Positions 25,336-53,603 of a stretch of DNA of 64,000 nucleotides are shown here, in pieces. This DNA comes from Ylistrum balloti (Eukaryota), in contig NW_026782326.1 of NCBI RefSeq assembly GCF_031769215.1, forward strand, positions 779,432 to 843,431, in the 5' to 3' direction. The translations under genes and the position numbers were made by a program. The number at the start of each line of letters is the position of its first letter. Position 1 is the first letter of the stretch. The notes under the pieces are model-generated. The model ran no database searches. It was not told where the DNA came from and worked only from the letters and a program-made list of their open reading frames with translations.

Positions 25336-25400
25336 TTTTTTCTCTGAAGATAATCCACCTCTCAGAGCCAGTACCAGATAAACAGCATTATTTTGCAGAT
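25336..25400 (-). CDS. PARP4-like: exon completing Ubl domain: (D)LQNNAVYLVLALRGGLSSEKK, continues 3'
   Basis: LVLALRGG = ubiquitin C-terminal LVLRLRGG; acceptor tttttttttag| (25402-25401), donor AAA|gtgagtg (25335-25334); ends phase 0, so more coding sequence lies below 25336. Confidence 0.65.
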
Positions 25401-25750
25401 CTAAAAAAAAACATAACATATTTTTAAAAAGTCAATGGTAATTTCATGGATATCCTTCTGGGATCTTGGTCTCCACCTTCCGAGGACTTGATTTTAAGGA
25501 CTAAGGACATCATGGTGTGAATTAAAAACTAGATATGTTTATGTATAGATGTTTATACATAAACACATTTTAAAAGTAATAAACATTACAATGTGAATAT
25601 AAATCAAATATGTTACAGTGTTACATGAGATACTAACATTTTGTACAAATGCTTGATCATAATTCCCTTTTCTTCTACAACAGTCAGATAAACAATCATG
25701 GACAGTGGGACCCATCACTTGGTTTTTGATTGGAGACAGTCAATAATTAC

Positions 25751-25933
25751 CTAGATCAGAGATGTTGAGGGTGTTTTCCAGAGCTATACCATTACTTATC
25801 AACCTCTGCTGATCTGGACAGACTCCCTCTTCCTTGTAGATTTTGTCCTTCAAGTCAGCCACTGTATCTTTATTAGACACATTCAGAGCAACAGTCCTAC
25901 CAGTCAGAGTTTTTACATGAACTGTTGACGAGA
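25751..25933 (-). CDS. PARP4-like: exon encoding ubiquitin-like domain: SSTVHVKTLTGRTVALNVSNKDTVADLKDKIYKEEGVCPDQQRLISNGIALENTLNISDL
   Basis: ubiquitin fold signature (VKTLTG.T..L.V...T...K.KI...EG.P.DQQRLI..G..LE...L..) cf. ubiquitin [41 protein letters not shown]; acceptor ttctag| (25935-25934), donor CTAG|gtaattat (25750-25749). Confidence 0.7.
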
Positions 25934-26750
25934 CTAGAATTTAGAAGTACAAAACAAGGTTCTTTTTAAACATCATTCCCAAATCTTTGTGATGGGGCAG
26001 TAACTAAAAACAGAGTTCAACTCATTTTCTCCATATAATGGGGTTTATACAAAAATTTACAAAATATAAAAAACAAAGTGAGCAGGGGATTAAATTGATA
26101 TACCCAGGCCCATCACCTCATCCTTTTCTTCTGATCTAGTTGTATTGAGGGGTTCATGAAGTATTATGTACACAACCTCTTTCTTTGCCTTTCAACCTTG
26201 TCAAATGATCACCAAATCTAATCTGGTATAGACTTTGGTTGGGTGATACTATGTTGTGAATATAAACTAAATCTGGGTTCATCAGATATCTTGTACGTAA
26301 GGTTTTCATGACTGCACAGACAGAGGTAGCTCAGAGAGAGTGATTACTTTGTACCCTCCCTCTTACCTGAGTGGGGGTAAATTAAGTGATGTAGGTAAGC
26401 ATATTGTGTACCAGTAATCCTAGGGGGCCACTATATCAGATCTGACATAGTAACAAGTAGGTGGGTGGGGGTGTTATAGGACAATGATTTAATATTTGTT
26501 TGTATTTCTCATTTTTGAAGTAAGGGTTGAATACGTAAACAAACTTTCTCTGAAAATTCTACCTCAGTTATAACTACCTTAGGGATCTTGTAGAAAGACA
26601 AATCTAAAGGTATACCTACCTCTGAATCTGATTGGACAAAACTACAGCTGATGGAATAAAAATATAACAGGTTGGATAAAATGTTTTAACAGCATATTAA
26701 AGTTGCTACATGTAGAATTATTTACAATAGATATATTTCTTAACACTTAC

Positions 26751-26838
26751 TAGGAAAACTTTTACGGAACTCCACCAACACTGACTGACTGATGTCATCT
26801 TTGGAACATGTGAAGAATTTTTCAACTGCTTCCATGAC
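26751..26838 (-). CDS. PARP4-like: exon VMEAVEKFFTCSKDDISQSVLVEFRKSFP(I)
   Basis: acceptor gtgtttttgaag| (26840-26839), donor CCTA|gtaagtg (26750-26749); phase 0 in, 1 out, matching the Ubl exon. Confidence 0.5.
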
Positions 26839-27798
26839 CTTCAAAAACACAACACATGCTGATCAGGAAAAACAATGATCTCAGTTTGTTGATTATTCTA
26901 TTGAATACATGTATGAGTGGGGTTGTCTAACATGGTGATGGACTAAGCCAAACATCAATAGAGGGTCACATCTCCGGTTTACATTTATATTGAACCAGCA
27001 GAGCTAAAAAAGGAATGAAATTCATACCAAATTTGGCATGGCCTATGGGGCAGGTGAAACAGAAAGTTAAACTATGTATTTTTTTGTATATTTTTAATGG
27101 CATCATTAATTTTTAGAGTCGTGTTATATTCACATACGTTTTTAGATATTATTTTAATAATATATATAAAACCTATATTCATGCTCCATTAAAAATGGTC
27201 ACTTATTCCAGATTGATGCTTTCCCACTTTTTACATGTACTTTGTGCCATATTTGGGGGAAAGGAAGGGGAAGGAAAAGGATAAAGATTGGCTATAAATA
27301 ACAATTTCTGTAATTCTTAATCACAAATTTCCAGTGATCCACTGTAAAAAACTTTATTATTCATGTTGTAATACTTTTGTTTTAAATTGCATTACCTGAA
27401 AAATATTCTACATTGTACAATTCTAAACTGAATTCTATCTTTTGTCCATAAAACAGAAGAGCATGAATTTGGTTCCATGAATTAGCAGCAGTTGTCAGCT
27501 GTGATCTTTGACACTTTAACCTAGACTGATGATCACATGAACATAATGTTATGAACCAGATCTGTAGAGCAGCTCTCAAGATATCAAATTAATATTCAGA
27601 ATGGGACACATGAAACGATTGGACACAATGTAAATATGAGTAACATTAGATTCCATCACCATTTCGTGGCAGACATAACAAAATTCAGTCACTTCTCAAG
27701 TCCCATTTTACAGAGACTGGTGAAAGAGAAAGTTGAATTGAATGGATGACTCAGTTTTTATCAGAACAGTGACAAGTCACTTTTTACACCTTTTTTAC

Positions 27799-27945
27799 CT
27801 TTTCTCGGAGGTCATAGTTGGCATCAGATTGAAGACATGGCTTGTAATCCAGAATGGAGGTGTAGACTCTTTTGGCTTCCATCTGGGAGAAACTTTCTGC
27901 TATCAGGCCTTTCCTCAACAGCTCCTCCACAATTTCTTTTGGTTC
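27799..27945 (-). CDS. PARP4-like: PARP4-like exon EPKEIVEELLRKGLIAESFSQMEAKRVYTSILDYKPCLQSDANYDLREK
   Basis: acceptor ttttgatttag| (27947-27946), donor AAG|gtaaaaaagg (27798-27797). Confidence 0.55.
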
Positions 27946-28189
27946 CTAAATCAAAATGAAGCAAACAAATATATGATATCTGTGCTACGCCCTGCTGCTT
28001 AACATATGTAATACCAGGATAAAACTACACAAAACAAGAGATCCCAGACGAATCTTGGCGCTGACCATAGTTTAATGTTTATATGCTCTTTGAATGTTGG
28101 ATCTTTTCCCTTCTTTTCTCTTTTCTTTTCTTTTGCTCTGAATGATAAGATACTTGAACATTCCTTGGCAGAAATAGTGGAGATAATCT

Positions 28190-29100
28190 GTACATGCCAA
28201 ATCCCAAATGGCCGTCTGAAAGCCATTTTGTTTCTTCTTATCAGTCCCAAAATGAAACAAGCACAAGGAGAGACCAAAGGGAACCTACGCATGAAATTTG
28301 AGAGATATCCATTCAGTATTTCTTAAGAAAGAGAAATAACAATGTTTACTAGGCAAAATCCAAGATAGCCATTTTGTTTCTTTGATCAGTCCCAAATTCA
28401 AACAGACATAACTAGGGACCTAAAGGAACCCTCTACAAAAAATTCAAGAAAGATCTATAGAGTATATAAGTCAAAATCTAAGATGGTCGCATGTGGGCCA
28501 TTTTGTTTTTTCTGATCAGTACCAAAGTCAAACAGGCAAAACTAGGGCCTAAAGGGAACCTACATACAAAATTTAAGAAAGAACCATCCCATACTTCTCA
28601 AGAAACAGCAATAACAATCTTTCAAAGACAAAATCCCAGATGGCAGTCTGTTGGCCAAATTGTTCTTTTGATCAGACCCAAAATTAATTAAGCATAACTT
28701 GGGAGCAAAAGGAACCTACATATGAAATTCAAGAAAGATTCATCCAGTACTTCTCAAGAAATAGCAATAACAATATTTCAAAGACAAAACCCAAGATGGC
28801 CGCCGTTCAGCCATTTTGTTTTTCTGATCAGTCTCAAAATCAAATGTGCCCAACTAGAGGCCAAGAGGAACCTACAGATGAAATTTGAGAGAGATCCATC
28901 TCTCACCTTTCAAGAAATAGTAATAACAAACTTCATTGAAAATACCCATGATGACAGGCTGTTAGCCATTTTGTTTTTTTGATCAGGCCCAAAATCAAAT
29001 GTGCACAACTAGGGACCAAGAGAAACCTACATATGCAATTTGAGAAATATTCATCCAGCACTTCTCAAGACAAAACGATAACAAAAATTGTTTATGGATC
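28190..29100. repeat. intronic tandem array of ~160-bp units (..aagatggccgcc...gccattttgttt.tt.tgatcag.cccaaa.tcaaa...aact.gg..c.aa.g.aacctac..a.gaaatt..agaaag..tccat...ac.tctcaagaaa.agcaataacaa..tttc) x ~5.5
   Basis: direct periodicity; generates false short ORFs on both strands. Confidence 0.8.
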
Positions 29101-29206
29101 AATGGAAGGATGGAAGGATGGACGACAGATGATGGACCACGTACGCAGAGCAATTTGAATAGCCCACTATCTGCAGGAAGAATCACAAGGTAGTAAGCTG
29201 ACTTAC

Positions 29207-29314
29207 TTTTTCATCAAATACATCAGGATTCTGCCAACCAACATATTCCAGAATGTCTACTGACTCCTCAGCCACAAGTTCATTAATGGAAGGTCCATCC
29301 TTTTTCTGCTCATT
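29207..29314 (-). CDS. PARP4-like: PARP4-like exon NEQKKDGPSINELVAEESVDILEYVGWQNPDVFDEK
   Basis: acceptor cgatttcag| (29316-29315), donor AAA|gtaagtcag (29206-29205); phase 0/0. Confidence 0.5.
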
Positions 29315-30480: not shown

Positions 30481-30582
30481 CTGGTTTCTTTCTTCAATGG
30501 CCACGAAGCTGGTGTAGGGGGTCACAATGGAGAACTCAGTGCTCAGCTGAATAATAGTGTTCTTTCTCTCCTGTTTCAGCAC
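30481..30582 (-). CDS. PARP4-like: PARP4-like exon VLKQERKNTIIQLSTEFSIVTPYTSFVAIEERNQ
   Basis: (S/T)PYTSFVA(I/V)E is the hallmark C-terminal motif of the ITIH/VWA5A/PARP4 VIT-vWA family; acceptor ttttaactttcag| (30584-30583), donor CAG|gtaatcac (30480-30479). Confidence 0.75.
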
Positions 30583-32952: not shown

Positions 32953-33033
32953 CCTCTGTTTTATCTTGTCTTCACTTAGGATACCATCCTCATAGTCACG
33001 GATCAGTGCACGAGCCGTCAGCTGATGCAGCAT
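32953..33033 (-). CDS. PARP4-like: PARP4-like exon MLHQLTARALIRDYEDGILSEDKIKQR
   Basis: acceptor gtgtcttcag| (33035-33034), donor AGG|gtaagtac (32952-32951); LAARALIRD(F/Y)EDG-type motif of VWA5A/ITIH C-terminal region. Confidence 0.6.
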
Positions 33034-33966: not shown

Positions 33967-34047
33967 CTCCCCTTGTGTGATGTTAAGTTCAGTTGTTGCT
34001 ACCATGGTAGAAATCTCCATATTGTCAACTGTGGCTTTCAAGTAGGC
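33967..34047 (-). CDS. PARP4-like: PARP4-like exon AYLKATVDNMEISTMVATTELNITQGE
   Basis: acceptor ctgatttacag| (34049-34048), donor GAG|gtaagcag (33966-33965); phase 0/0; assignment to this gene by phase only. Confidence 0.45.
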
Positions 34048-35387
34048 CTGTAAATCAGATTGTATGGAATAATATAGAATTGGTTCAAAGTATAGACCAA
34101 ATTTTACGTCTCTGAAACAACATTCTATAATCTAATTTTGTTTATATTACAAGCTGATTGTTGTTTTACACAAACATATCTTTTTCCATTGAAACCCCCA
34201 TAATTTGGGATGTTGTGTTTATGCATTTCTGGGTTAAAACTGGAAAAAATGTCTTGAAAATTAAAAGAGTAACACTTATTTAACACCATTAGCCTTTCTC
34301 CCTCCAAAAGTTGACCAATATAACAAATTTAAGGACAATAACCCTTTATTCACCAGCTCTTGCTTTCACTGTTTGAGTTGATCACCATTAATAACATAAA
34401 AGTGACATACTGTTAACATATTTAACTTGGCGTAATGGAATTTTAACCCATCACTACTAAACATTTTGCAAATTAGTGCAGTCATGAATTTGAGCATCAA
34501 CAATGAAAGTTACAGCAACTGCAATTTAATCCCCTAACCAGTAAAATATATTTACAAACTGTGAATAAATTTTCACCTGAGTACAGTTCGGTACAAATCC
34601 GTATACGACCTGTCGTGACCCCGAGAACAGACTTGGGATGTGATTAGGGGCCTGTAGGGGTTGATCAGGTGTGTCCATGTGTTGTTGCCACTCAACCTTT
34701 ACACAAGAAATACCTGGACAACATGCCCTCTGAACTTGTGAGGTCATCTAAAAAGGTGAAAATCATCAACAGATCACAGTAACCATTTCCAGGTAAGAAG
34801 ATATTGCTGGAGTAAAGCTTAACACAATGTTTTCTTGTGAAAATTCTGCAATTTTCTGGCACAATTTCATTCGAGATTTGTCAGTGTTGGAACCAATGTA
34901 AAAATAACTAGGATTTTACAGGAAACAGACATGTACAACATTACAATGATATTTCCTTAATTTCACTTACCACCAATACTATACACCCACTCTATGTACC
35001 TCTAAACTTCCAAACTAACATTTACAATTTCTGCTTAGCAACGTGTTCACAGCGACCTAATTATGTGACATGTACACAAGACTATATAATTCTGCACTAG
35101 AATCGGTTTTCAATATCACTGTCTTAATTCATGATGATTGAATAATTATGAAATTGTTTCAATAACTGAATTCCCAAAAACACTTAAACAGATTGTAAAA
35201 TATAAAAGCTCCAATTTTCTTGTTTTTAACAATTTCATCACATGCTAAAAAGTTAAACTTGTCTTGGACAAAAGGAGGTCACACAGTAAAGAATTATTGG
35301 TGTTCATAGAGAAAATGAAAAAAAAGAATCTAATCTGAATCTAATACAATAAGATTTATTGGTATTGAAATGAGATGATTTACTCAC

Positions 35388-35487
35388 CCTCGCCTCCCAA
35401 ACAGAGCGTGTCTTGTAGTTGTAGTGGTAATAGGTACCACCTCCGCGTGATGCCAGGCGCCGCATCAAGTGGTGGTTCACATTTGTT
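35388..35487 (-). CDS. PARP4-like: PARP4-like exon (vWA end) (G)TNVNHHLMRRLASRGGGTYYHYNYKTRSVWEAR
   Basis: acceptor tttacttgaag| (35489-35488), donor AGG|gtgagtaa (35387-35386); phase 2 in, 0 out. Confidence 0.65.
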
Positions 35488-35723: not shown

Positions 35724-35911
35724 CCAACACCAATAGTGAAAATTCTATTTTTGGCATTTCCTTTTCTAACAGTTGACAACAGCACATCACTGTTGCTAAG
35801 GTAACCATCTGAGATGAGGAAGATACTCCTACTGCCCTCTGCTGGACTTAGAAGAAACAAGGACTCCACTGGATAATTGACATTGCTCCCTCCCATTTGT
35901 GGTTGTACACT
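35724..35911 (-). CDS. PARP4-like: PARP4-like exon (vWA) SVQPQMGGSNVNYPVESLFLLSPAEGSRSIFLISDGYLSNSDVLLSTVRKGNAKNRIFTIGVG
   Basis: IFLISDG ... RIFTIGVG = vWA beta4/beta5 signatures; acceptor tgtatttag| (35913-35912), donor GTTGG|gtaaat (35723-35722). Confidence 0.8.
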
Positions 35912-36239
35912 CTAAATACAAAACACAAATAAGATGTAATTCTATCATTGGTATATATGATAAGTATATGATATATAGCTAATTGTGTTTTTCTGCTCTG
36001 CCCTTGGAACTTCTTTGACCTTGACCATTAGAAATTATTCAACACAGCGCACATCTAAGGACTGACAAAACATCAACTCATATGCTTAGCATTTCATGTG
36101 AAATTGTTTGAAAAGATGCACTAAAAATTCTAAAATGTCACTCATGGAATCCAAGATTGAAAGTTATGCCTATAATTAGTCATTTGAAATCTTTCTTTAG
36201 AGTATAAATTCTATGTTGACTTTCTGTATAAAATATTAC

Positions 36240-36676
36240 AGGATTAAATTATGAGAATTTGTATAAAATCTTACAATTATGAATTTCATGACTTTCTGGG
36301 TAATTTTTTACCTGTATAAATTTTGTGACTTTTGTATAAAATTTTACCTGTGTAAATTCCGTGACTTTCTGAGTAATTTTTACCTGTATAAATTCTGTGA
36401 CTTTTTGTTTAAAATTTTACCTGTATAAATTCTGTGACTTTTGTATGAAATTTTACCTGTATAAATTCTGTGGCTTTTGTATGAAATTTTACCTGTATAA
36501 ATTCTGTGACTTTTTGTATGAAATTTTACCTGTATAAATTCTGTGACTTTTTGTATGAAATTTTACCTGTATAAATTCTGTGGCTTTTTGTTTAAAATTT
36601 TACCTGTATAAATTCTGTGACTTTTGTATGAAATTTTACCTGTATAAATTCTGTGGCTTTTTGTATGAAATTTTAC
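36240..36676. repeat. 37-bp tandem repeat x ~12 that reiterates the exon-end + GT donor of the 36677-36817 vWA exon (unit on minus: caaaaag(c/t)cacagaatttatacag|gtaaaatttcata)
   Basis: array is contiguous with the exon/intron boundary at 36677/36676; each unit contains a copy of CAG|GTAAAAT. Confidence 0.85.
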
Positions 36677-36817
36677 CTGTATAAATTCTGTGGCTTTTTG
36701 TACAGCCTGTTTGGTCTTTTTCTGAGGTGCAGGGAAGAGCTCTGTGTAAGATGTTCCAAAACTAAGCACATTGATAAGAGCTTTCTCTGGAAGTTTCTCT
36801 ACAGCTAGGAGGAATAA
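36677..36817 (-). CDS. PARP4-like: PARP4-like exon (vWA) LFLLAVEKLPEKALINVLSFGTSYTELFPAPQKKTKQAVQKATEFIQ
   Basis: acceptor ttaattcacag| (36819-36818; the nearer cctag acceptor would give an in-frame stop), donor CAG|gtaaaatttc (36676-36675); pattern L.LP..FN..GFGS typical of VWA5A/ITIH vWA. Confidence 0.75.
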
Positions 36818-37290: not shown

Positions 37291-37410
37291 CTTTTTAGCA
37301 TCTCGAGTTGACTGTCCCTTCATAGAATTTGACATGTCCAACAAAAAAATGACCTCAGGGTCCTCTTCAAATTCTGCCTCAAATTCCGGGTAGAATGCCA
37401 ACATGCATGC
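37291..37410 (-). CDS. PARP4-like: PARP4-like exon (vWA start with MIDAS) ACMLAFYPEFEAEFEEDPEVIFLLDMSNSMKGQSTRDAKK
   Basis: DxSxS MIDAS motif (DMSNS) preceded by hydrophobic beta-strand VIFLL; acceptor tttaaccag| (37412-37411), donor AAG|gtcagt (37290-37289). Confidence 0.8.
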
Positions 37411-38087: not shown

Positions 38088-38222
38088 CTGAGTGGCCCTG
38101 CTAGGGTGTCTCTCCACCCACATGCGGGGAACATGAATTTCAGACAGACTGACCAGCAAAATAAATCCATCATCCAGTCTGGCATTCTTTGGAAGCTCCA
38201 CCACAGCCTTTGTTGCTGTTTT
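38088..38222 (-). CDS. PARP4-like: PARP4-like exon (VIT end) KTATKAVVELPKNARLDDGFILLVSLSEIHVPRMWVERHPSRATQ
   Basis: acceptor ttttatag| (38224-38223), donor CAG|gtatgtcac (38087-38086). Confidence 0.7.
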
Positions 38223-38415: not shown

Positions 38416-38538
38416 CTTATATTTAACTTGATGTGTAGGGGACATCACACTGCGAATATCAAAAGGCATCTCCACAGAAACCTGCAGTGATAGGGATGAT
38501 CTGTCACCATCCTGGATCCTCAGCATGTCAAGGTCAAA
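38416..38538 (-). CDS. PARP4-like: PARP4-like exon (VIT) FDLDMLRIQDGDRSSLSLQVSVEMPFDIRSVMSPTHQVKYK
   Basis: acceptor ttttactcaaaag| (38540-38539), donor AAG|gtatgt (38415-38414); phase 0/0. Confidence 0.65.
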
Positions 38539-38810: not shown

Positions 38811-38976
38811 CTGAGTTGCCTGTGCCAGTGCTGTGTCCTTGACCCAGGGAGCAACTGAGGAAGGCACTCTGAAAGCAATACTTTCCCCCTCTACCTGCAG
38901 TTCTGTGATGTAGGTAATCTTGATCAGTACATCAGATTTTGGTGGCAGGTTACCAACACTGACTGTAAAAACATCC
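38811..38976 (-). CDS. PARP4-like: PARP4-like exon (VIT) DVFTVSVGNLPPK[frameshift]SDVLIKITYITELQVEGESIAFRVPSSVAPWVKDTALAQATQ
   Basis: acceptor ttgtccaacag| (38978-38977), donor CAG|gtaagtc (38810-38809); 166 nt, not a multiple of 3: A5 run 38947-38951 (plus ttttt) shifts frame between conserved FTVSVGNLPP and KSDVLIKITYITEL; alternative acceptor tgtttttacag| at 38964 gives an in-frame 153-nt exon. Confidence 0.55.
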
Positions 38977-38999: not shown

Positions 39000-41900
39000 T
39001 GAAGACAAGGAGTCAATTTACTGCAGGCAAGAACTCAATCTACTGAAGACAAGGAGTCATTCTACTGAAGGCAAGAACTCAATCTACTGAAGACAAGGAG
39101 TCATTCTACTGAAGACAAGGAGTCATTCTAGTGAAGACAAGGAGTCATTCTACTGAAGACAAGGAGTCAATTTACTGCAGGCAAGAACTCAATCTACTGA
39201 AGACAAGGAGTCATTCTACTGCAGGCAAGAACTCAATCTACTGAAGACAAGGAGTCATTCTACTGCAGGCAAGAACTCAATCTACTGAAGACAAGGAGTC
39301 ATTCTACTGCAGGCAAGAACTCAATCTACTGAAGACAAGGAGTCATTCCACTGCAGGCAAGAACTCAATCTACTGAAGACAAGGAGTCATTCTACTGAAG
39401 ACAAGGAGTCATTCTAGTGAAGACAAGGAGTCATTCTACTGAAGACAAGGAGGCAATCTACTGAAGACAAGGAGTCATTCTACTGAAGACAAGGAGGCAA
39501 TCTACTGAAGACAAGGAGTCATTCTACTGCAGGCAAGAACTCAATCTACTGAAGACAAGGAGTCATTCCACTGCAGGCAAGAACTCAATCTACTGAAGAC
39601 AAGGAGTCATTCTACTGCAGGCAAGAACTCAATCTACTGAAGACAAGGAGTCATTCTACTGCAGGCAAGAAATCAATCTACTGAAGACAAGGAGTCATTC
39701 TACTGAAGACAAGGAGTCATTCTACTGCAGGCAAGAACTCAATCTACTGAAGACAAGGAGTCATTCCACTGCAGGCAAGAACTCAATCTACTGAAGACAA
39801 GGAGTCAATCTACTGAAGACAAGGAGTCATTCTACTGCAGGCAAGAACTCAATCTCATGAAGACAAGGAGTCATTCTACTGCAGGCAAGAACTCAATCTC
39901 ATGAAGACAAGGAGTCATTCTACTGCAGGCAAGAACTCAATCTACTGAAGACAAGGAGTCATTCTACTGCAGGCAAAAACTCAATCTACTGAAGACAAGG
40001 AGTCATTCTACTGAAGACAAGGAGTCATTCTAGTGAAGACAAGGAGTCATTCTACTGAAGACAAGGAGGCAATCTACTGAAGACAAGGAGTCATTCTACT
40101 GAAGACAAGGAGGCAATCTACTGAAGACAAGGAGTCATTCTACTGCAGGCAAGAACTCAATCTACTGAAGACAAGGAGTCATTCCACTGCAATAAAGAAC
40201 TCAATCTACTGAAGACAAGGAGTCATTCTACTGAAGACAAGGAGTCATTCTACTGCAGGCAAGACCTCAATCTACTGCAGGCAAGGAGTCATTCTACTGA
40301 AGACAAGGAGTCATTCTACTGCAGGCAAGGAGTCATTCTACTGCAGGCAAGAACTCAATCTACTGAAGACAAGGAGTCATTCTACTGCAGGCAAGAACTC
40401 AATCTACTGAAGACAAGGAGTCATTCTACTGAAGACAAGGAGTCATTCTAGTGAAGACAAGGAGTCATTCTACTGAAGACAAGGAGTCATTCTACTGCAG
40501 GCAAGAACTCAGTCTACTGAAGACAAGGAGTCATTCTACTGCAGGCAAGAACTCAATCTACTGAAGACAAGGAGTCATTCTACTGCAGGCAAGAACTCAA
40601 TCTACTGAAGACAAGGAGTCATTCTACTGAAGACAAGGAGTCATTCTACTGAAGACAAGGAGTCATTCTACTGCAGGCAAGAACTCAATCTACTGAAGAC
40701 AAGGAGTCATTCCACTGCAGGCAAGAACTCAATCTACTGAAGACAAGGAGTCATTCTACTGAAGACAAGGAGTCATTCTACTGCAGGCAAGAACTCAATC
40801 TACTGCAGGCAAGGAGTCATTCTACTGAAGACAAGGAGTCATTCTACTGCAGGCAAGAACTCAATCTACTGAAGACAAGGAGTCATTCTACTGAAGACAA
40901 TGAGTCATTCTACTGAAGACAAGGAGTCATTCTAGTGAAGACAAGGAGGCATTCTACTGAAGACAAGGAGGCAATCTACTGAAGACAAGGAGTCATTCTA
41001 CTGAAGACAAGGAGTCATTCTAGTGAAGACAAGGAGGCAATCTACTGAAGACAAGGAGTCATTCTACTGCAGGCAAGAACTCAATCTACTGCAGACAAGG
41101 AGTCAATCTACTGAAGACAAGGAGTCATTCTACTGCAGGCAAGAACACAATCTACTGAAGACAAGGAGTCATTCTACTGCAGGCAAGAACTCAATCTACT
41201 GAAGACAAGGAGTCATTCTACTGCAGGCAAGAACTCAATCTACTGAAGACAAGGAGTCATTCTACTGCAGGCAAGAACTCAATCTACTGAAGACAAGGAG
41301 TCATTCTACTGCAGGCAAGAACTCAATCTACTGCAGGCAAGGAGTCATTCTACTGAAGACAAGGAGTCATTCTACTGCAGGCAAGAACTCAATCTACTGA
41401 AGACAAGGAGTCATTCTACTGAAGACAATGAGTCATTCTACTGAAGACAAGGAGTCATTCTAGTGAAGACAAGGAGTCATTCTACTGAAGACAAGGAGGC
41501 AATCTACTGAAGACAAGGAGTCATTCTACTGCAGGCAAGAACACAATCTACTGAAGACAAGGAGTCATTCTACTGCAGGCAAGAACTCAATCTACTGAAG
41601 ACAAGGAGTCATTCTACTGCAGGCAAGAACTCAATCTACTGAAGACAAGGAGTCATTCTACTGCAGGCAAGAACTCAATCTACTGAAGACAAGGAGTCAT
41701 TCTACTGCAGGCAAGAACTCAATCTACTGAAGACAAGGAGTCATTCTACTGCAGGCAAGAACTCAATCTACTGAAGACAAGGAGTCATTCTACTGCAGAC
41801 AAGAACTCAATCTACTGAAGACAAGGAGTCATTCTACTGAAGACAAGGAGGCAATCTACTGCAGGCAAGAACTCAATCTACTGAAGACAAGGAGTCATTC

Positions 41901-42790
41901 TACTGCAGGCAAGAACTCAATCTACTGAAGACAAGGAGTCATTCTACTGAAGACAAGGAGTCATTCTAATGAAGACAAGGAGTCATTCTACTGAAGACAA
42001 GGAGGCAATCTACTGAAGACAAGGAGTCAATCTATTGCAGGCAAGAACTCAATCTACTGAAGACAAGGAGTCATTCTACTGAAGACAAGGAGTCATTCTA
42101 CTGCAGGCAAGACCTCAATCTACTGCAGGCAAGGAGTCATTCTACTGAAGACAAGGAGTCATTCTACTGCAGGCAAGGAGTCATTCTACTGCAGGCAAGA
42201 ACTCAATCTACTGAAGACAAGGAGTCATTCTACTGCAGGCAAGAACTCAATCTACTGAAGACAAAGAGTCATTCTACTGAAGACAAGGAGTCATTCTAGT
42301 GAAGACAAGGAGTCATTCTACTGAAGACAAGGAGTCATTCTACTGCAGGCAAGAACTCAGTCTACTGAAGACAAGGAGTCATTCTACTGCAGGCAAGAAC
42401 TCAATCTACTGAAGACAAGGAGTCATTCCACTGCAGGCAAGAACTCAATCTACTGAAGACAAGGAGTCAATCTACTGAAGACAAGGAGTCATTCTACTGC
42501 AGGCAAGAACTCAATCTACTGAAGACAAGGAGTCATTCTACTGAAGACAAGGAGTCATTCTAGTGAAGACAAGGAGTCATTCTACTGAAGACAAGGAGGC
42601 AATCTACTGAAGACAAGGAGTCAATCTACTGCAGGCAAGAACTCAATCTACTGAAGACAAGGAGTCATTCTACTGAAGACAAGGAGTCATTCTAGTGAAG
42701 ACAAGGAGTCATTCTACTGAAGACAAGGAGTCAATCTACTGAAGACAAGGAGTCATTCTACTGAAGACAAGGAGTCAATCTACTGAAGAT
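39000..42790. repeat. 3.8-kb intronic minisatellite built from two 22-bp subunits (ctgaagacaaggagtcattcta / ctgcaggcaagaactcaatcta) in irregular alternation
   Basis: continuous periodicity between VIT exons 43552 and 38976. Confidence 0.9.
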
Positions 42791-43551
42791 ATGGAGTACT
42801 GAAAACAATGAGTCAGCATAATAAAAGATGAAGTACAACCTATTGAGGACAAAAAACAGCCAACTGAAAGATCTCTACTTTAAGCTAAACAGAGATTATA
42901 GAGTATAGAATTTAACTTCTACTTATTGGTTCTATATAAGATTGATGCTTTCCCTACTCTTTCTTCTATACACAGTTTTATCCATGATTTTTTAGGATAT
43001 TGAGTCCTGTTTTTTCCTCTAGAATCAGCTCAAATTTTGATATCCCACTATATCTCTTACTATTAAGACCAACCTAAAGTTCGGAAATGGTGTTCTGAAC
43101 TTGCCTTAAACAATCCTACAAAAATCACAGCCTCAGAGTATAACTATTGAATGAAGCATGTGATTACATAGTTCAACCAGAGAAATGTTAATACTAATTT
43201 TGGGAAGCATCCGTCAACTACTTTCAGGCTAAATGGACGTATGTCAATATTTTCCCATAGTCTGGTCTCAAAACTGAACTGCCAATAAAAAAGTGTTATA
43301 AAGGAATATTCCATGTATTTGATTCTGTTTTCTTTTCTTTTTGCAATTGTATCATAATTGGAATCTACATCACACCTCAAAATATCTCATTGTACACAAG
43401 AAACAAGTCACAAATTTTTCATTGTCAAGTCATGATAATCTATCAACCTGTTGAATGTGAAGCAGAACATTTTCTTTTTCTTTCACTGTCAAGCTCCTCT
43501 TGCTGAGAAAACAGCTGGATCAATCAACTTAAATGTGATATATCAACTTAC

Positions 43552-43643
43552 TGGCTCTTCCTCGTCCATGAGGTAAGCACCATGTCCTTTACTGATAGCT
43601 TCTTTGTACTCCTTGTGGGCGGCCTTCTTCTCTTTAACCTCAC
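43552..43643 (-). CDS. PARP4-like: PARP4-like exon (VIT) EVKEKKAAHKEYKEAISKGHGAYLMDEEEP
   Basis: resembles ITIH VIT segment KEKAEAQ.QY..AVAKG..AGLV; acceptor ctattgtcag| (43645-43644), donor CCA|gtaagt (43551-43550). Confidence 0.7.
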
Positions 43644-44341: not shown

Positions 44342-44468
44342 CAACAATGTGTTTTCCATTGATGAATGCTTCAAAGCCACAAACGACTGCTGTGTCGTCC
44401 AGGGGGAAGATGTACTTGGCTTCTATTGCTGAATCATTGTCGTTTCTATATTTCTGGAGCACGACCAC
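44342..44468 (-). CDS. PARP4-like: PARP4-like exon (VIT) VVVLQKYRNDNDSAIEAKYIFPLDDTAVVCGFEAFINGKHIV
   Basis: FPL..(T/S)A.V.GF.A.I.G motif of VIT (ITIH/VWA5A/PARP4); acceptor ttgtctgtag| (44470-44469); donor GTTG|gtgaga (44341-44340). Confidence 0.8.
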
Positions 44469-44619: not shown

Positions 44620-44747
44620 CTTGGCGACCATGTCCAGCATTCTGGCCCTGACATGGACACTCTTCAGAGGTACAGACTTTTTACCACCTATCAAGCCACC
44701 TGTGACTTTTTGGAGTGGATCTGGAATGCCTTTCACATCTGACAGGT
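44620..44747 (-). CDS. PARP4-like: PARP4-like exon (VIT domain start) LSDVKGIPDPLQKVTGGLIGGKKSVPLKSVHVRARMLDMVAK
   Basis: acceptor tttttttttag| (44749-44748); donor AAG|gtcagt; VIT N-terminal pattern PL.sv.v...i.g.va.v. Confidence 0.7.
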
Positions 44748-45357: not shown

Positions 45358-45566
45358 CAACATTAGCGAGGTTTTGAGAGAGATGGTCATCTTCTGTATC
45401 TTTGTCACATTGTAGCGTAAGGGAGGGAAAAGACAGCACAGGATCCTCAGGGAGACAAAACTCCACTACATATCGTATCCTCTGCTGCCGTGGGCTGTAC
45501 ACCACATATTCATTGTCCTGATCAAGAACAAAGTGCCAGAAATTTAAGGACAATATTTCAACAAAA
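45358..45566 (-). CDS. PARP4-like: PARP4-like exon (end of catalytic domain) FVEILSLNFWHFVLDQDNEYVVYSPRQQRIRYVVEFCLPEDPVLSFPSLTLQCDKDTEDDHLSQNLANV
   Basis: NEYVVY...RYVVEF ~ PARP1 NEYIVYD..LKYLLKLKF; acceptor tacctgcag| ; donor GTTG|gtaagc. Confidence 0.7.
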
Positions 45567-46135
45567 CTGCAGGTAAACAAACAAAGGCAAAACATTTAAA
45601 AATACTGTCAAATATTAATAAACAGGTTCCTGGGAAAATCTAAAATAAAAGCTAACTCTGACACATACTTTAATAATTGAAGCTTCAAACTGCTCCTGGT
45701 TGAAGCATTAAGGTAAAATATTCAAGGTCATATAATGGAGGTCAAAGGTCACATGACATCAATGCATAGTACAATGTTATCAACAAACTATAAAGATAGA
45801 TAAATCAATGACTATAAGATTGTTTCCATTTATAGTTGTGACAGACTGGATCAGGGCTGTGACTGCTGATCTTATTTTCATTCTACTTTACTTTATCAGA
45901 TACCATGGAGGATCCTCTAAACATGTGCAGGTGCATCAAAATGTTTTCACCTAAAATGGTAACATTTAAAATGTAACAGAACCATTTTGTCCTTGTAAAT
46001 GAATAGATCTTTGGGGCAGGGCAAAGCAACTGAGGAACAAAGATGGTCAAAGGTAATTCATCTAACCAAGACTGAGAGTCCATTTATGACAAACAAAGCC
46101 TGCTAACCTCAAAATGACTGTTGATCTCTGATGAC

Positions 46136-46291
46136 CTTTTAACCCCATGGGTGCTATGGTAACCATTGGGAGGTGCTGTGAGGGAGGAGTCCGTAGTTGT
46201 ATAGGGACACTGTCGTCCCAGTGCCACATCACAGACCAGGAGGAGGCGACATCCGTACACAGAACTTGGAGCTGAATACTTGATACATTTG
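46136..46291 (-). CDS. PARP4-like: PARP4-like exon (PARP catalytic) KCIKYSAPSSVYGCRLLLVCDVALGRQCPYTTTDSSLTAPPNGYHSTHGVK
   Basis: LLLVCDVALG = PARP signature LLLCEVALG; acceptor ctgtttccag| (46293-46292); donor AAAAG|gtcatc (46135-46134). Confidence 0.8.
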
Positions 46292-46495: not shown

Positions 46496-46594
46496 CTTGC
46501 AGAATCAGAAAAATAGATTCCATGTCCCAGCAAGCCTCTGTCTGTCCGGGTCACTCCGTAGGAGCTTTCCACGAAGTTGGGTTTCAATAAACCA
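46496..46594 (-). CDS. PARP4-like: PARP4-like exon (PARP catalytic) GLLKPNFVESSYGVTRTDRGLLGHGIYFSDSA(S)
   Basis: GHGIYFSDSAS ~ PARP1 GKGIYFADMVSKS; acceptor atatccag| (46596-46595), donor CAAG|gtaaaaaa (46495-46494). Confidence 0.8.
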
Positions 46595-47492: not shown

Positions 47493-47621
47493 CGGGACAT
47501 GATGCCAAGGAAGTTATGTGTAGAGGAAGCATGCATCAGTGATGTCACATTTCCAATATCAGACTGAAATTCCAGCTCCTCCAGAAAGCGACTAACGCTG
47601 TAGATGTTCCTCACCTCAACA
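47493..47621 (-). CDS. PARP4-like: PARP4-like exon (PARP catalytic, H-G-S region) VEVRNIYSVSRFLEELEFQSDIGNVTSLMHASSTHNFLGIMS(R)
   Basis: MHASSTHNFLGIMSRG aligns with PARP1 LWHGSRTTNFAGILSQG; acceptor ttgtctccacag| (47623-47622), donor CCCG|gtgagt (47492-47491). Confidence 0.8.
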
Positions 47622-48026: not shown

Positions 48027-48187
48027 CTTTCTGATGTCTCTGTCACCATTTCTGATATGTGTTGAAATTCCTTTGATGCTTTGTCGAGGCAGGTCACATG
48101 ACATCGAAGAGCTCTATATTTTGCATAGGTTGTTGCCTCACTGGACCAGTCTGTGGCCTCACTCACGCCCAAGATGTCATTTACAAG
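48027..48187 (-). CDS. PARP4-like: PARP4-like exon (reg/cat boundary) LVNDILGVSEATDWSSEATTYAKYRALRCHVTCLDKASKEFQHISEMVTETSE(S)
   Basis: acceptor ccccag| ; donor GAAAG|gtaagg (ORF-track stop TAA is inside the donor); phase 0 in, 2 out. Confidence 0.65.
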
Positions 48188-49275: not shown

Positions 49276-49452
49276 GGTACACAATTATCACTCACCTGAC
49301 ACAGGTCCTGTTTAGTAGAGATATCCTTAAGTGACATTGTATCTTTTTTGAATCCGTCTTTATGTGGCATGGCAGTGTAGAATTCCTCCAGCAAATCACT
49401 GATTACAGTGTTGTCTGCTGCTTCTGTTACAGCTGTCTTAAGTTGTGATAGT
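49276..49452 (-). CDS. PARP4-like: PARP4-like exon (PARP alpha-helical regulatory domain) VDEAEAVLSQLKTAVTEAADNTVISDLLEEFYTAMPHKDGFKKDTMSLKDISTKQDLCQ
   Basis: FYT.(I/M)PH motif of PARP regulatory domain; acceptor ..tatgtcag| (49454-49453; weak polypyrimidine tract), donor CAG|gtgagtg (49275-49274). Confidence 0.6.
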
Positions 49453-49800
49453 ACAGCCTCTGCTTCATCAACCTGACATAGTATATTATAGATTTATTTA
49501 GCTTTATTATTATTAGTTTACCAAACTACATTAAAAATCATAGCAAATTGATTTTTTCATAGAATTAGTTGATATACACATTTGCTTTGATCTTTGAATT
49601 TCAAAGTTGGTGTTTATCATTACATTTTTTCAAATGAAAATTATGGGTACATCAAGGCACAGGAAATCTGTGTTGATTGGGTCACAGTGACCTACGTACA
49701 AGTTTGCTGCTGACCTTTTGTCATTGACTAAGGTTTACTAAAGATTTTATGCTGTTTATTTAAATCTATTAATCAAGATATGATTTAACAAACACATTAC

Positions 49801-49938
49801 CTTGTCCTGTTTGATGTGCTGGAGTTTCATATCCAGTTGCATCTCTGCCTCATGACTTGCCTCTGCCCACACCAGTTCCACCAGCTGTCCGACATCTGGA
49901 CTGACTTCCGCTGTCAGGATACACAACTCGCCCAAAAG
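49801..49938 (-). CDS. PARP4-like: PARP4-like exon LLGELCILTAEVSPDVGQLVELVWAEASHEAEMQLDMKLQHIKQDK
   Basis: acceptor ttgtcacag| ; donor AAG|gtaatg; phase 0/0. Confidence 0.55.
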
Positions 49939-50129
49939 CTGTGACAAATACATTTATTTATAAAGTACACACACCTTTGGTGCAGAAAACATCCTGTCAT
50001 TTATGAGGTACCACACTGAATGTTTTTATACTCTTTTCTTTCTAAATAATTCTATTTCATTCATGAACATCAGCAATGTTTTAGTCAATGGTAAGTTAAC
50101 ATGGAGATTTTAGCAACTGGTTAGTTACC

Positions 50130-50590: not shown

Positions 50591-50904
50591 TACAGTTAAG
50601 TATTGAAATTTTATCCATGTCTAAAATGTCAAAGATCAAGGACTGGTGTTATTTCATAAACCAATATGATTTGTCCATTGTTTGTAACATGATAAGTAGC
50701 AAAAGAAAAACTTCAGAGTAGCAGCATATATACACGTACATGTCAATATTCATCAGAAAAGATATCAGTTGTGTGGTAAAAAATAATATCATGAACCATC
50801 ATGTAAATGAATTACTAAACAGTTTTGAAGCAAAAAGAAATGTTCACAAGTATATGCTTCATGTATGAATTAAGATAAAATTTTTATGATGACATTGTCC
50901 CTAC

Positions 50905-51075
50905 CATTCTGAGTTTGGTAGATCCCAAGGCACTGTTGGCAAGCACAGGGTTATCCCATGTTGACATGTTGTAGGGATGGGAGGTATATCGTTGGTACAA
51001 CTGCTCATATCCACTGATGACTTCATTGGAAGTGTGCATGTACCAGGCTACAGGGGTGTCTTTGTTGTCACCAGT
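50905..51075 (-). CDS. PARP4-like: PARP4-like exon TGDNKDTPVAWYMHTSNEVISGYEQLYQRYTSHPYNMSTWDNPVLANSALGSTKLRM
   Basis: acceptor cttttacag| (51077-51076); donor ATG|gtaggg (50904-50903); phase 0/0. Confidence 0.55.
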
Positions 51076-51510
51076 CTGTAAAAGTGTAAAACACTGATAT
51101 ATATATATATGTAAACAATACCCTATACATTAATATACTCATTCTTTTGTGATAGATTTTTTTCAAATTAAATGAAAAAATACTGTTACCATTATGAACA
51201 CCAATGGTGAGCTAATTGTAATTTCTGTTTTGATTAAATATTACATAATTTCAACTTGTATACAATGCTGTTTCCTAATGATGTCTGTATAATGATTGCC
51301 GTCTTCAGCTTCATAACTACATAATGTAGAAAATATCATAAAACATATATATGTATCAGTTCTTTTGGTACTGCAAGTGATTCTAGCATAATGTAATTGA
51401 TGGTAGATGAACTGGCCATTCTATTTCATTTTGAAAGACTGTTAAATGTAACTACAGCCATTATCATCAAAACCAGTGGGCCGAGACCCATCAGTGTTGA
51501 CTAACCATAC

Positions 51511-51612
51511 CAATTCATCTGTCAGTGATCCGGTCTGGGAGTACAGCCTGAAGGGAAGATGAACATCACATTGACTTGCATGTATCTCCAGGATCTGGAC
51601 AGTGTCTTTGGA
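51511..51612 (-). CDS. PARP4-like: PARP4-like exon SKDTVQILEIHASQCDVHLPFRLYSQTGSLTDEL
   Basis: acceptor ctgtttttacag| ; donor TTG|gtatgg; phase 0/0. Confidence 0.55.
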
Positions 51613-51976
51613 CTGTAAAAACAGAACCCATGAAACAATTAATAACTTGACAACATCAGACACTGTCTCTCTAAGGTACAAATACACATGGTCATTGTAT
51701 GATTACAGTGTTGCTGATCCCCATCCAACTTCATCATCATTACAGTGGATTTCAACTTGTGATTATCCTTCCAGTATCTAAATACAGCATTGATATCAAC
51801 TTTCATCAGTTCATAATTTAGATAAATTATCAAACTTTAACCTTTAACAAACTTTAAGTCTGTTATGCAAAAATATATATCTTAATAGTTTTCTAAAGCT
51901 CTCATATTGTGCCATGCAGACTTGGAAATACAAAACAAAATTATGTAAAAACGATAACATGACACAGTTGACCTAC

Positions 51977-52119
51977 CTTAAGCACCACCCATTTGGCTAC
52001 TACATATTCTTGCTCATTGTACTCGGGACTATCAGGGTCCCCAAGGGGCCAGCACTCTGTACTGTTCAGGTTCAGATGTATCTTCTTTTTCTTCTTTTTT
52101 ACCATTCCCTGATGCACAG
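51977..52119 (-). CDS. PARP4-like: PARP4-like exon (..AVHQGMVKKKKKKIHLNLNSTECWPLGDPDSPEYNEQEYVVAKWVVLK)
   Basis: acceptor ttaacag| (52121-52120), donor AAG|gtaggt (51976-51975); phase 1 in, 0 out. Confidence 0.5.
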
Positions 52120-52525
52120 CTGTTAATTCCAAACCAAATTACAAATGTAAACAATCAAAATTAAAGTTATAGCGATGCCAGAGTACAAAAAAAATACAAA
52201 ATAGCTAGATAACATGTCATTTAATCTGCCTAAGGGAGCTAGGTAAGAACAGAAGTAAACTGACAAATTCAATTGTCAGATACCACAATGTTCATCAATA
52301 CTACCATCTAAAAACAACTGAAATTAATAAAGGTAAAAAAAAGGAATACAATCTAAATATTTACCAGGAACATATTTTGTTTAATTTAGATATCTAACCA
52401 TAAAGTTGTCATCATTTCAATGGAATTTGCTTTTGAAAATGAAAGAAATGATGAAATATTTGTATGCAAAGCAGTAAACTAACTGATGAGATCTATGTGA
52501 TAACTAACATAAAGAATTAAATTAC

Positions 52526-52730
52526 TTGTACTCAAGATTTTTCCTTTCTGAAAATTCTTGCCATCCATTGCCTCCCCAGCAAGGTAAGGGCTCATGGCGA
52601 GTTTCTGTTGCTGCTGCAGACTATCATCAATGAACTCTGCCCTTAGCACTGGCACTCCATTGCGTCTTGCCTGACGAACTTTGTAAGTAGTCTTCTCTAA
52701 CATGTCATTAAACAGAATCAAGCAGGATAT
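52526..52730 (-). CDS. PARP4-like: PARP4-like exon (BRCT C-half) ISCLILFNDMLEKTTYKVRQARRNGVPVLRAEFIDDSLQQQQKLAMSPYLAGEAMDGKNFQKGKILST
   Basis: acceptor tgattttcag| (52732-52731), phase 0; 3' end uncertain (donor either ACAA|gtaatt 52525 or TTGA|gtacaa 52531, both phase 1). Confidence 0.5.
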
Positions 52731-53468
52731 CTGAAAATCAAATACAAAAGGCCAATGTGAAAGGCTTAGAATTATGTTGAACACATAGAAAACTGTTGCA
52801 ACCCTGGTGAAATACTAGCCACCATATACGGTACCACTAGGCTAGTGAGAAAGCCTCTTTAATTCAATCAGTTAAGCATCAGAATAGTAAGCCAGAGGTC
52901 CAGGTCTTTGTAGGGTTTTAAGAATAATACTGACCATTACTATCATAAGCATTGCTGTAACCCCTGGAAACTCAGGGATGAGTTATTTTCTGGAGGAGAA
53001 GTATATATGTAACCCTGGTAAAAAACTGATCACAATATACCACTCGGCTAAAGAGAACTTCTCTTTAGCTCAACTAATTCAGCAGCTAACCTATAAACCA
53101 AAGGCCCTGGGTTTAAATCTTAAAGAAGGCATTGGATTAAATAATGACCACTGTAACACAATGTAGATTAAAACATTCTGACGTTTGAAAAAAGTATCCC
53201 AGCCTGATAACAATATGTTATATACTACAATATGTAGTTGATTACGCCAATAACAATACAAATACTTTTGATTTCTTTAAAAAAAATCATATATGCATCT
53301 TTATTATAGTACAGGTAATTTTGCCTCTAGGACACAACAGTAACTAAATGCATGAAAATTTCAGATCACTTAACCGTGTGTTTTGTTTCTTATAACAGAT
53401 GAGGCGCCTTTTCACCCATCAACACAGATACCATTCTAATCCCACATCTGTAGAATCTAATACTCTAC

Positions 53469-53603
53469 CTTCTTTGTGATGATATAAGACACAGTGCCAC
53501 CATTGTCCGTGATTTTCTTTCGCCACCTGGCTTTTTCCTTGAAGGGCATTGTAGAGTTGAACTCCAGCACAACAGTCAGACGTCTGAATATTTTGGAATT
53601 CAT
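53469..53603 (-). CDS. PARP4-like: PARP4-like exon 1 (start codon; BRCT N-half) MNSKIFRRLTVVLEFNSTMPFKEKARWRKKITDNGGTVSYIITKK
   Basis: ATG 53603-53601 in aaaccATGa context; donor AAG|gtagag at 53468-53467; BRCT pattern IF..L.V.L.......K..........NGG.V. Confidence 0.65.

Follow-up and report, generated by a model that had tools for sequence, protein, structure and literature searches.

A vault PARP gene of Ylistrum balloti with a predicted internal ubiquitin-like domain and a disordered tether rich in histone H3-tail-like repeats

Does the vault PARP gene (PARP4) in a 64,000-nucleotide stretch of the Ylistrum balloti genome (RefSeq assembly GCF_031769215.1, contig NW_026782326.1, positions 779,432 to 843,431; hereafter the window, to which all positions refer unless another locus is named) run on into a ubiquitin-like domain (Ubl), or do two separate genes lie there on the same strand? 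The original prediction placed a BRCT-PARP-VIT-vWA protein between 53603 and 30481 and had the exons downstream of it enter a ubiquitin fold in continuous splice phase. In vertebrates, PARP4 comprises an enzyme body and an ITIH-like region that are tied to the vault-binding MVP-interacting domain (MVPID) by a disordered segment; to our knowledge, neither PARP4 nor the vault has a settled function. Our analysis indicates that the minus strand of the window very probably harbors a PARP4 gene whose body open reading frame (ORF) runs on through two linker exons into a ubiquitin-derived beta-grasp. This gene structure, taken together with a mechanism in which the Ubl-bearing tether would serve as bait, is the best overall explanation we can offer, and we hold it with moderate confidence.

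PARP4 homologs were mapped onto the window, which is AT-rich (~35% GC) and contains spliced genes, by tblastn, and splice sites were then chosen with a phase-aware dynamic programme; the acceptors of three exons (3, 17 and 24) were refined afterwards by length match to the homologs. The predicted model comprises 31 exons on the minus strand, beginning with the ATG at 53603 and closing with the donor at 25336, with AG/GT boundaries throughout and no stop codon, and encodes 1383 aa. In this product, Pfam identified BRCT (PF00533, residues 2-83, 36.6 bits), PARP_reg (PF02877, residues 266-369, 32.5 bits), the PARP catalytic domain (PF00644, residues 395-569, 89.1 bits), VIT (residues 629-739, 132.7 bits) and VWA_3 (residues 877-1028, 90.8 bits), the last with the metal ion-dependent adhesion site (MIDAS) motif DMSNS at residue 883. 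The closest solved structure to the ADP-ribosyltransferase (ART) domain was human PARP4 (chains 8SWY/8SX1, E 4e-44), in which LLHGS, GIYFSDS and EDDEFVVY pair with LMHAS, GIYFSDS and EDNEYVVY of the window, so that the H, Y and E positions, which we take to be the catalytic triad, align. When the PARP-VIT-vWA segment was used as a query, PARP4 proteins of numerous animals were recovered, and the top matches were all PARP4 (54-57% identity, 84-99% query cover, E down to 1e-264). With a BRCT domain, a mid-protein ART carrying H-Y-E, a VIT plus vWA pair with its MIDAS and orthology across the whole body, the protein belongs to the clade 5 vault PARPs. The PARP4-type architecture proposed for 53603-30481 is borne out by these Pfam matches, and its motifs were recovered as FYTAMPH, FPLDDTAVVCGF in VIT, DMSNS and PYTSFVAIEE, alongside GIYFSDS; two others had been misread, as the motif given as H-G-S is H-A-S (LMHASS) and LLLCEVALG reads LLLVCDVALG.

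The same search placed a ubiquitin domain (PF00240) at residues 1305-1368 with 58.8 bits against a cutoff of 25.4, so that the PARP, VIT, VWA and ubiquitin models all match the conceptual translation, and the predicted ubiquitin fold ending in LVLALRGG is confirmed. The Ubl is identical to ubiquitin at 36/74 positions (49%) and to NEDD8 at 28/74. Aligned to ubiquitin, it retains the L8/I44/V70 hydrophobic patch and the ALRGG tail, with K48 replaced by Ile, H68 by Tyr and R72 by Ala, and K63 falling in a one-residue gap flanked by Asn; its di-glycine lies internally in the predicted product. The di-glycine is followed by Pro in Littorina, Mercenaria and two further loci (L004 and L009), and Batillaria lacks the second Gly (RLRGAK). 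In the UBA52, RPS27A and polyubiquitin fusions, and in proteins with internal Ubl domains, a beta-grasp derived from ubiquitin and tailed by LRGG is likewise encoded in frame with another protein; in the fusion precursors, however, ubiquitin is N-terminal, nearly invariant and cleaved off, whereas the Ubl of the window is internal and diverged and that of most relatives is followed by Pro. A retro-copied ubiquitin pseudogene was also considered as a source of the domain and is ruled out by the introns of the Ubl, its intact frame and its conservation across species. In L009, the last Ubl exon is tandemly duplicated (2558-2660 and 2692-2790), the two copies ending …LRLRGNGDGPST and …LRLRGGPST, and looks like an alternative-exon pair.

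The exons starting at 29314, 27945, 26838, 25933 and 25400, for which continuous phase had been claimed, all possess an AG acceptor and a GT donor. Exons 26-31 end in phases 0, 0, 0, 1, 1 and 0 when read on the minus strand, and the reading frame is therefore continuous from the body into the Ubl. Candidate peptides spanning predicted junctions are RKSFPISSTVHVK, LRGGLSSEKKDIQQQ and LRGGLSSEKKGHYWEL. The exons of the model are as follows, where "mapped" denotes homolog mapping plus splice model.

Exon 1, 53469..53603, minus: ATG at 53603-53601 and start of BRCT (MNSKIFRRLTVVLEF...); aligns to residue 1-2 of Solemya and Littorina PARP4; BRCT Pfam match
Exon 2, 52526..52730, minus: remainder of BRCT; mapped
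Exon 3, 51977..52119, minus: basic KKKKKK run; acceptor set by homolog length, less certain than the other exons
Exon 4, 51511..51612, minus: mapped
Exon 5, 50905..51075, minus: mapped
Exon 6, 49801..49938, minus: helical regulatory domain; mapped, Pfam
Exon 7, 49296..49472, minus: regulatory domain, FYTAMPH; mapped, Pfam
Exon 8, 48027..48187, minus: mapped
Exon 9, 47493..47621, minus: start of ART, catalytic His in LMHASS; aligned to the human PARP4 structure sequence
Exon 10, 46496..46594, minus: catalytic Tyr in GIYFSDS; aligned to the human PARP4 structure sequence
Exon 11, 46108..46291, minus: LLLVCDVALG; aligned to the human PARP4 structure sequence
Exon 12, 45358..45517, minus: catalytic Glu in NEYVVY; aligned to the human PARP4 structure sequence
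Exon 13, 44620..44747, minus: start of VIT; mapped, Pfam
Exon 14, 44342..44468, minus: VIT, FPLDDTAVVCGF; mapped
Exon 15, 43552..43643, minus: mapped
Exon 16, 38811..38975, minus: mapped
Exon 17, 38416..38538, minus: acceptor picked by homolog length match
Exon 18, 38088..38222, minus: mapped
Exon 19, 37291..37410, minus: vWA MIDAS motif DMSNS; splice model, Pfam
Exon 20, 36677..36817, minus: vWA; mapped
Exon 21, 35724..35911, minus: vWA; mapped
Exon 22, 35388..35487, minus: mapped
Exon 23, 34577..34747, minus: mapped
Exon 24, 33967..34047, minus: refined acceptor
Exon 25, 32953..33033, minus: MLHQLTARALIRDYEDG; mapped
Exon 26, 30481..30582, minus: VLKQERK…PYTSFVAIEERNQ, containing PYTSFVAIEE; end phase 0
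Exon 27, 29207..29314, minus: NEQKKDGPSINELVAEESVDILEYVGWQNPDVFDEK (including GPSINELVAEESVDILEYVGW); end phase 0; final segment common to all animal PARP4 compared, vertebrates included
Exon 28, 27799..27945, minus: helical linker EPKEIVEELL…DLREK; phase 0 at both ends; homologous to the Pinctada PARP4 C terminus and the Mercenaria linker
Exon 29, 26751..26838, minus: second linker exon, VMEAVEKFF…KSFP; phase 0 start, phase 1 end
Exon 30, 25751..25933, minus: Ubl corresponding to ubiquitin 2-59 (VHVKTLTG...PDQQRL...), SSTVHVKTLTGRTVALNV…PDQQRLISNGIALENTLNISDL; phase 1 at both ends
Exon 31, 25336..25400, minus: final Ubl strand and tail VYLVLALRGG LSSEKK, LQNNAVYLVLALRGGLSSEKK; GTGAGT donor, phase 0

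Where does the gene end? When vertebrate PARP4 C termini were used as tblastn queries, they matched the minus strand at 10450-10328 and 9320-9207, far downstream of the Ubl. Splicing 10429-10330 to 9532-9183 yields 150 aa that align along their length with the C-terminal 120-140 residues of PARP4 from several vertebrates. Pfam matched no family to a fish MVPID sequence, and a profile was therefore made by hand from 10 vertebrate MVPIDs; hhalign against this profile returned a probability of 95.7% (E 8.7e-9, 118 columns). Only two matches at E <=10 were obtained from PDB (177,635 sequences), the better of which was human PARP4 1585-1637 (E 0.13). No VIT or vWA coding was found between 17.9 kb and 10.4 kb, and the MVPID exons are therefore best read as the C terminus of the same gene, which would then reach ~16 kb past the span of the original prediction. 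On this reading, since these exons lie downstream on the same strand, the Ubl exons would fall inside the PARP4 gene. None of the invertebrate PARP4 models compared contains an MVPID, and MVPID exons were not detected downstream in any of ten further loci (L001-L010). The window indicates that the domain occurs outside the vertebrates, and the 3' ends of public mollusc PARP4 models have probably been cut short or wrongly split.

Between the Ubl and the MVPID lies a giant exon, in agreement with the earlier claim that coding continues beyond 25336: the phase-0 GTGAGT donor of exon 31 is compatible with a strong acceptor, TTGCTATTTTTCAG|G, at 22126, where a stop-free exon of 4.2 kb begins. Reading through exon 31 would instead reach a stop at 25311-25309. 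The first 427 residues of the giant exon contain no Met, so it requires an upstream coding exon, and a chance ORF is ruled out by 1406 stop-free codons in 35% GC DNA. The features of this downstream part are listed below.

Giant exon, 17942..22126, minus: 4.2 kb, 1394 codons plus stop (17944-17942), phase-0 acceptor; ~1390 disordered residues; candidate GTAAGA donor at 17956
H3-tail-like and acidic repeats, 22126-20879, minus: in the giant exon; five units APRK[RQ]LATKAARK[SF]APA
CTD-like heptads, 20560-20327, minus: in the giant exon; YSPTSPA-type, resembling the C-terminal domain (CTD) of RNA polymerase II (Pol II)
FG-like stretch, 20326-19817, minus: in the giant exon
RGG repeats, 19816-19352, minus: in the giant exon; eleven copies of GFRGGRGG (33 bp x 12.7)
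RS repeats, 19021-18167, minus: in the giant exon; long array (36 bp x 22.9)
First MVPID exon, 10330..10429, minus: GHYWELTPELCQTLG...LQGLYSL; phase-0 acceptor, frame-compatible with the donors of exons 26, 27, 28 and 31
Last MVPID exon, 9180..9532, minus: …ENMIATYLVFLK…CRELELGHTLHTATWNLF…; stop at 9182-9180

The giant exon begins with a degenerate stretch resembling histone H3, ahead of five tandem units of 67 aa (201 bp x 5.3, 97% identical), each consisting of an acidic run and GGKGAPRK[RQ]LATKAARK[SF]APAV, so that histone H3 residues ~14-31 are copied near-exactly five times. With phmmer against PDB, the 60 matches listed were exclusively histone H3 tails (residues ~6-33, E 3e-5). Such a set of archetypal modified or recognized host sequences within one exon is unusual.

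How the giant exon and the MVPID relate to each other, and thus how the transcript would be spliced in vivo and which isoform chosen, we infer from the splice phases. Several observations weigh against a single continuous protein, and against our explanation more broadly. Searches by homology, by motif and by enumerating splice scores yielded no exon that would connect the giant exon with the MVPID, and every GT donor close to the giant exon's end is phase 1 or 2, whereas the MVPID acceptor is phase 0; the two may therefore be alternatives rather than parts of one protein. All of the exon junctions are sequence predictions, as are the fused models of other species described below, and no Ubl or H3-like exon was found within 10 kb downstream of the PARP4 models of Haliotis rubra and Pinctada, so that not every mollusc has the insert. 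Both 22126 and 10429 could accept the exon-31 donor in frame, and the simplest reading would be a choice of 3' ends, giving either body, Ubl and disordered exon (2777 aa) or body, Ubl and MVPID (1533 aa). Because exons 29-31 make up a symmetric cassette that spans 336 nt and starts and ends in phase 0, an isoform that lacks the Ubl is also possible. A 218-aa ORF at 16984-16331 (minus strand), tried as a linking exon, does not fit and has no Pfam match; it contains two C2H2-like zinc-finger motifs and may be a transposon remnant or an unrecognized exon.

Is the Ubl joined to PARP4 elsewhere? When the spliced C-terminal exons were used as a first homolog query, only plain ubiquitins were returned. 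Among the 120 matches listed for the PARP-VIT-vWA query, PF00240 was present in one protein, from Littorina saxatilis; a later chimeric query added the RefSeq Mercenaria mercenaria PARP4-like protein (1778 aa) and two models from Batillaria attramentaria. Five gene models from three species thus fuse a Ubl to PARP4, including two separate annotations of the Littorina gene (RefSeq XP_070191086.1 and GenBank KAK7108576.1), and comparison with invertebrate PARP4 homologs places PF00240 at the same position in all three species. Sequences and Pfam matches show that the fused models share the order …[FY]TSFVAIE…DIL.Y.GW…, an optional helical linker, the Ubl and a disordered tail, so the arrangement is conserved in other molluscs. 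Like the window, these proteins combine a PARP4 body, a ubiquitin-family domain and a disordered tail, the tail bearing H3-tail-like stretches in Littorina and Batillaria; Mercenaria further shares both linker exons and the phase-1 Ubl entry. They differ from it in that body identity is ~50%, the Ubl introns lie at other positions, the Littorina and Mercenaria Ubls are closer to ubiquitin (68-76%) and followed by Pro, and the models, which are database predictions, lack the giant repeat exon and the MVPID. These fused mollusc proteins are already present in databases as unremarked predictions, and no paper describing them was found in the literature searched.

An alternative, which we consider improbable, is that two genes are involved: PARP4 would either terminate with exon 27 or 28 or be spliced from there directly to the MVPID, the Ubl and the disordered exon would form a separate gene on the same strand, nested or adjacent, and the fused mollusc models would be read-through artefacts of prediction. 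The phase-0 ends of exons 26, 27 and 28, in frame with the MVPID acceptor at 10429, would suit such an arrangement, as would the ATG that forms the second codon of exon 29. In Mercenaria, however, the counterpart of exon 29 lies 1.1 kb past that of exon 28, carries a pyrimidine-rich AG acceptor and a phase-1 GTAAGA donor, contains no Met and is followed by a 12-kb intron before the Ubl; it is an internal exon, which makes the ATG present in the window's exon 29 incidental. The Pinctada and Haliotis models end before any Ubl, as two genes would predict, the Pinctada model terminating in the segment homologous to exon 28. Against this stand the five models that join the Ubl to PARP4, two of them separate Littorina annotations, and the absence of a start codon of their own from the Ubl exons in the window, in Littorina and in the unannotated contig L008. 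The intron phases are conserved between bivalve and gastropod. Phase-1 entry into the first Ubl exon is common to the window, Mercenaria and L008, and a phase-1 intron at approximately ubiquitin codon 60 is common to the window and L008. The PARP-Ubl fusion of the original prediction is thus supported by relatives, phases and the MVPID, although the combination is not unique to this genome.

We then asked what relatives the giant exon has. An exhaustive search with its first 522 aa gave just 14 weak matches. Two of these, together with eight from the chimeric query, each occupy one long ORF on a eukaryotic contig from an ENA assembly and constitute one family, characterized by FG repeats, a conserved acidic motif, an exact copy of H3(15-34), further ARKSAP units, RGG repeats, SPSYSPTSPSYSPT and a conserved C-terminal tail; Pfam detected Nucleoporin_FG in one member (43 bits). 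The tails are conserved up to the stop, as in a terminal exon, a feature that would also suit the two-gene alternative. Neither a SNAP-25-like exon nor counterparts of the C-terminal motifs of this family were found when looked for in the window. In three loci (L004, L008 and L009), Ubl exons are followed on the same strand by an H3-like exon (RTRQTAR[KR]STGG[KR]APRKM) and then by a giant ORF. The H3-like exon of L008 (9038-9595) additionally contains a copy of the C-terminal SNARE motif of SNAP-25 (SN2), which Pfam missed and phmmer against PDB caught (E 5e-9). SNAP-25-like stretches that were matched by eye and are unscored also follow the Ubl in L009 (5262-5867) and in the Mercenaria locus L010 (60897-61061); in L008 and L009, the stretch is directly followed by H3-tail-like stretches. 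In the Littorina and Batillaria PARP4 models, H3-like stretches again come after the Ubl. From this recurring order in the predicted sequences, we conclude that Ubl, H3 mimic and disordered exon form a conserved unit, which is joined to PARP4 in the Littorina and Batillaria models. At a qualitative level only, repeats and modules were seen to turn over from species to species.

The H3 copies of the relatives have a peculiarity of their own. In six sequences from ENA contigs (P0128, P0135 and P0147-P0150) and in Littorina (P0013), Lys9 is replaced by Met, Tyr or Cys (TARMSTGG, TARYSTGG, TARCSTGG), whereas H3 residues 15-34 are exact in the same relatives; in Batillaria, every Lys is Arg. K-to-M histones are known methyltransferase inhibitors.

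What might a ubiquitin-like domain do within PARP4? The Ubl and the mimic-rich exon would sit in a flexible tether between the enzyme body and the C-terminal modules, a position that corresponds to the region that vertebrates encode as their largest exon, which is disordered, has been shaped by recurrent positive selection and has been put forward as an interface between host and pathogen (PMC4038475); it has further been suggested that viruses might cleave or modify this region (PMC10450202). The Ubl is internal, most relatives have GG-Pro or have lost the GG, and K48 and K63 are replaced; for these reasons, we read it as a permanent, built-in ubiquitin mimic that would not be conjugatable. 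Since the L8/I44/V70 patch and the LRGG are kept, the Ubl could, together with the H3-tail and other mimics, bait proteins that recognize or cut ubiquitin or host sequences, which might be deubiquitinase-like proteases of pathogens or ubiquitin-binding factors of the host. Proteins bound to the bait would come to lie beside the ADP-ribosyltransferase and the vault, whereas cleavage would free the enzyme from the C-terminal module. Tentatively, we favor this function, in which a permanent mimic would be one of several baits in the tether and would be bound or cleaved. The bait or decoy function is conjectural, and against it the residue that follows the GG in the window is Leu, not Pro, so that cleavage by a host deubiquitinase could occur.

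The Ubl might instead be a processing site, at which deubiquitinases cut after LRGG and split the PARP4 body from the C-terminal module; the freed body would then carry a ubiquitin-like GG at its end, by which it might even become attached to targets. Ubiquitin fusions are normally cleaved when any residue but Pro follows the GG, and GG-Pro resists. The canonical LRGG-Leu of the window would therefore permit processing, and its tail LVLALRGG is what we take to be the C terminus of NEDD8; the cleavage-resistant GG-Pro of Littorina, Mercenaria, L004 and L009 and the lost second Gly of Batillaria speak against processing, as does a Ubl that is just 49% identical to ubiquitin, with K48, K63, H68 and R72 all changed. 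We regard processing as quite unlikely.

A further putative explanation directs the tether at the host cell itself, either as an acceptor for auto-ADP-ribosylation, through the KS motifs of the H3 copies and the acidic runs, or as a multivalent scaffold that draws host factors to the vault, candidates being karyopherins via the H3-tail, RGG, RS and FG elements and ubiquitin receptors via the Ubl. The H3 'ARKS' motifs occur in every unit beside long Glu/Asp/Ser runs, and the ART triad is intact, which would be in keeping with the acceptor variant; serine ADP-ribosylation, however, is known for PARP1/2 with HPF1, not for PARP4. H3-tail, RGG, RS and FG elements are known karyopherin ligands, as the scaffold variant would require, and vaults have been linked to nuclear pores (PMC2964712). 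The SNAP-25 SNARE-motif copy that the array of relatives also contains fits neither variant well, and we consider a host-directed tether unlikely.

The bait proposal can also be extended. The mimicry seen comprises ubiquitin and the H3 tail in the window, and SNAP-25 SN2 (E 5e-9) and Nucleoporin_FG (43 bits) in related loci. By analogy with known immune decoys, we speculate that the PARP4 tether of some molluscs could be an integrated decoy array made up of a ubiquitin copy with LRGG, H3 tails, FG-nucleoporin, Pol II CTD, RGG and RS elements and, in relatives, a SNAP-25 SNARE motif; this is a long shot that we nevertheless deem worth stating. Each element would mimic a deeply conserved host sequence on which pathogen proteases, toxins or modifying enzymes act, and any of these baits, once attacked, would cause the ADP-ribosyltransferase to be set free or activated, or else hold the attacker at the vault. 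If true, this would make the vault PARP an effector-triggered innate immune sensor and would explain the positive selection on the same region in vertebrates. NLRP1/CARD8 tripwires and plant NLR integrated decoys present mimics of the targets of pathogen enzymes (PMC7857732, PMC8591160, PMC10249858) and, like the predicted tether, place them in a disordered, fast-evolving segment of an immune-linked protein. This resemblance is one of logic only: the window encodes neither FIIND/CARD nor an NLR module, and ADP-ribosylation or release from the vault would take the place of an inflammasome as the putative output.

Comparison with known PARP4 proteins shows which parts of the arrangement are new. 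Human and other vertebrate PARP4 proteins share with the window the order BRCT, helical domain, ART (H-Y-E), VIT and vWA, a large single disordered exon after the body and a C-terminal MVPID; they lack the Ubl and the helical linker exons, both of which the window has, and their disordered exon, at ~360 aa, is not made of H3-tail, CTD, FG, RGG or RS copies, unlike that of the window. Clade 5 'PARP4-like' proteins with added C-terminal domains have been described, namely 14-3-3 (Branchiostoma, sea urchin and amoebae), actin and, in Acanthamoeba, ubiquitin-related domains (Perina et al. 2014, PMC4245714), so the PARP4 body tolerates extra C-terminal modules, as in the window. No animal PARP4 with a ubiquitin-family domain is included there, and the Ubl of the window is internal to the tether rather than a terminal add-on. 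That PARP4 accepts extra C-terminal domains is thus already known, whereas a Ubl plus H3-array tether in an animal PARP4 appears to be new; the literature searched yielded no account of either a ubiquitin domain or an array of histone tails in such a protein. In mammals, the one strong clue to function is positive selection on the disordered exon that joins the enzyme body to the vault anchor. The corresponding tether of some molluscs carries recognizable copies of ubiquitin, the H3 tail and other host sequences, which would turn a vague 'host-pathogen interface' into concrete candidate baits.

Several minor observations concern PARP4 homologs and the repeats of the window. In some PARP4 homologs (P0007 from Branchiostoma, P0091 and P0124), a C-terminal 14-3-3 domain takes the place of the Ubl, which fits the published variability. 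Tandem arrays at 14030-14734 and ~4300-5400 yield long repetitive pseudo-ORFs in minus-strand frames, QNSNIH[IF]SQFLLKVTNKIQIF… and LNLTQSYDRFRLNLT…, and are probably non-coding satellites. Most of intron 15 is occupied by a satellite at 39000-42797 (3.8 kb, 44-bp unit, ~86 copies, 91% matches), which accounts for a GC-rich, AT-skewed and ORF-free stretch there. A 37-bp minisatellite (~13 copies, 36202-36702) begins within the 3' end of exon 20 and repeats the donor of this exon, ATACAG|GTAAAA, many times; since its unit is not a multiple of three, the frame is kept by the first copy alone.

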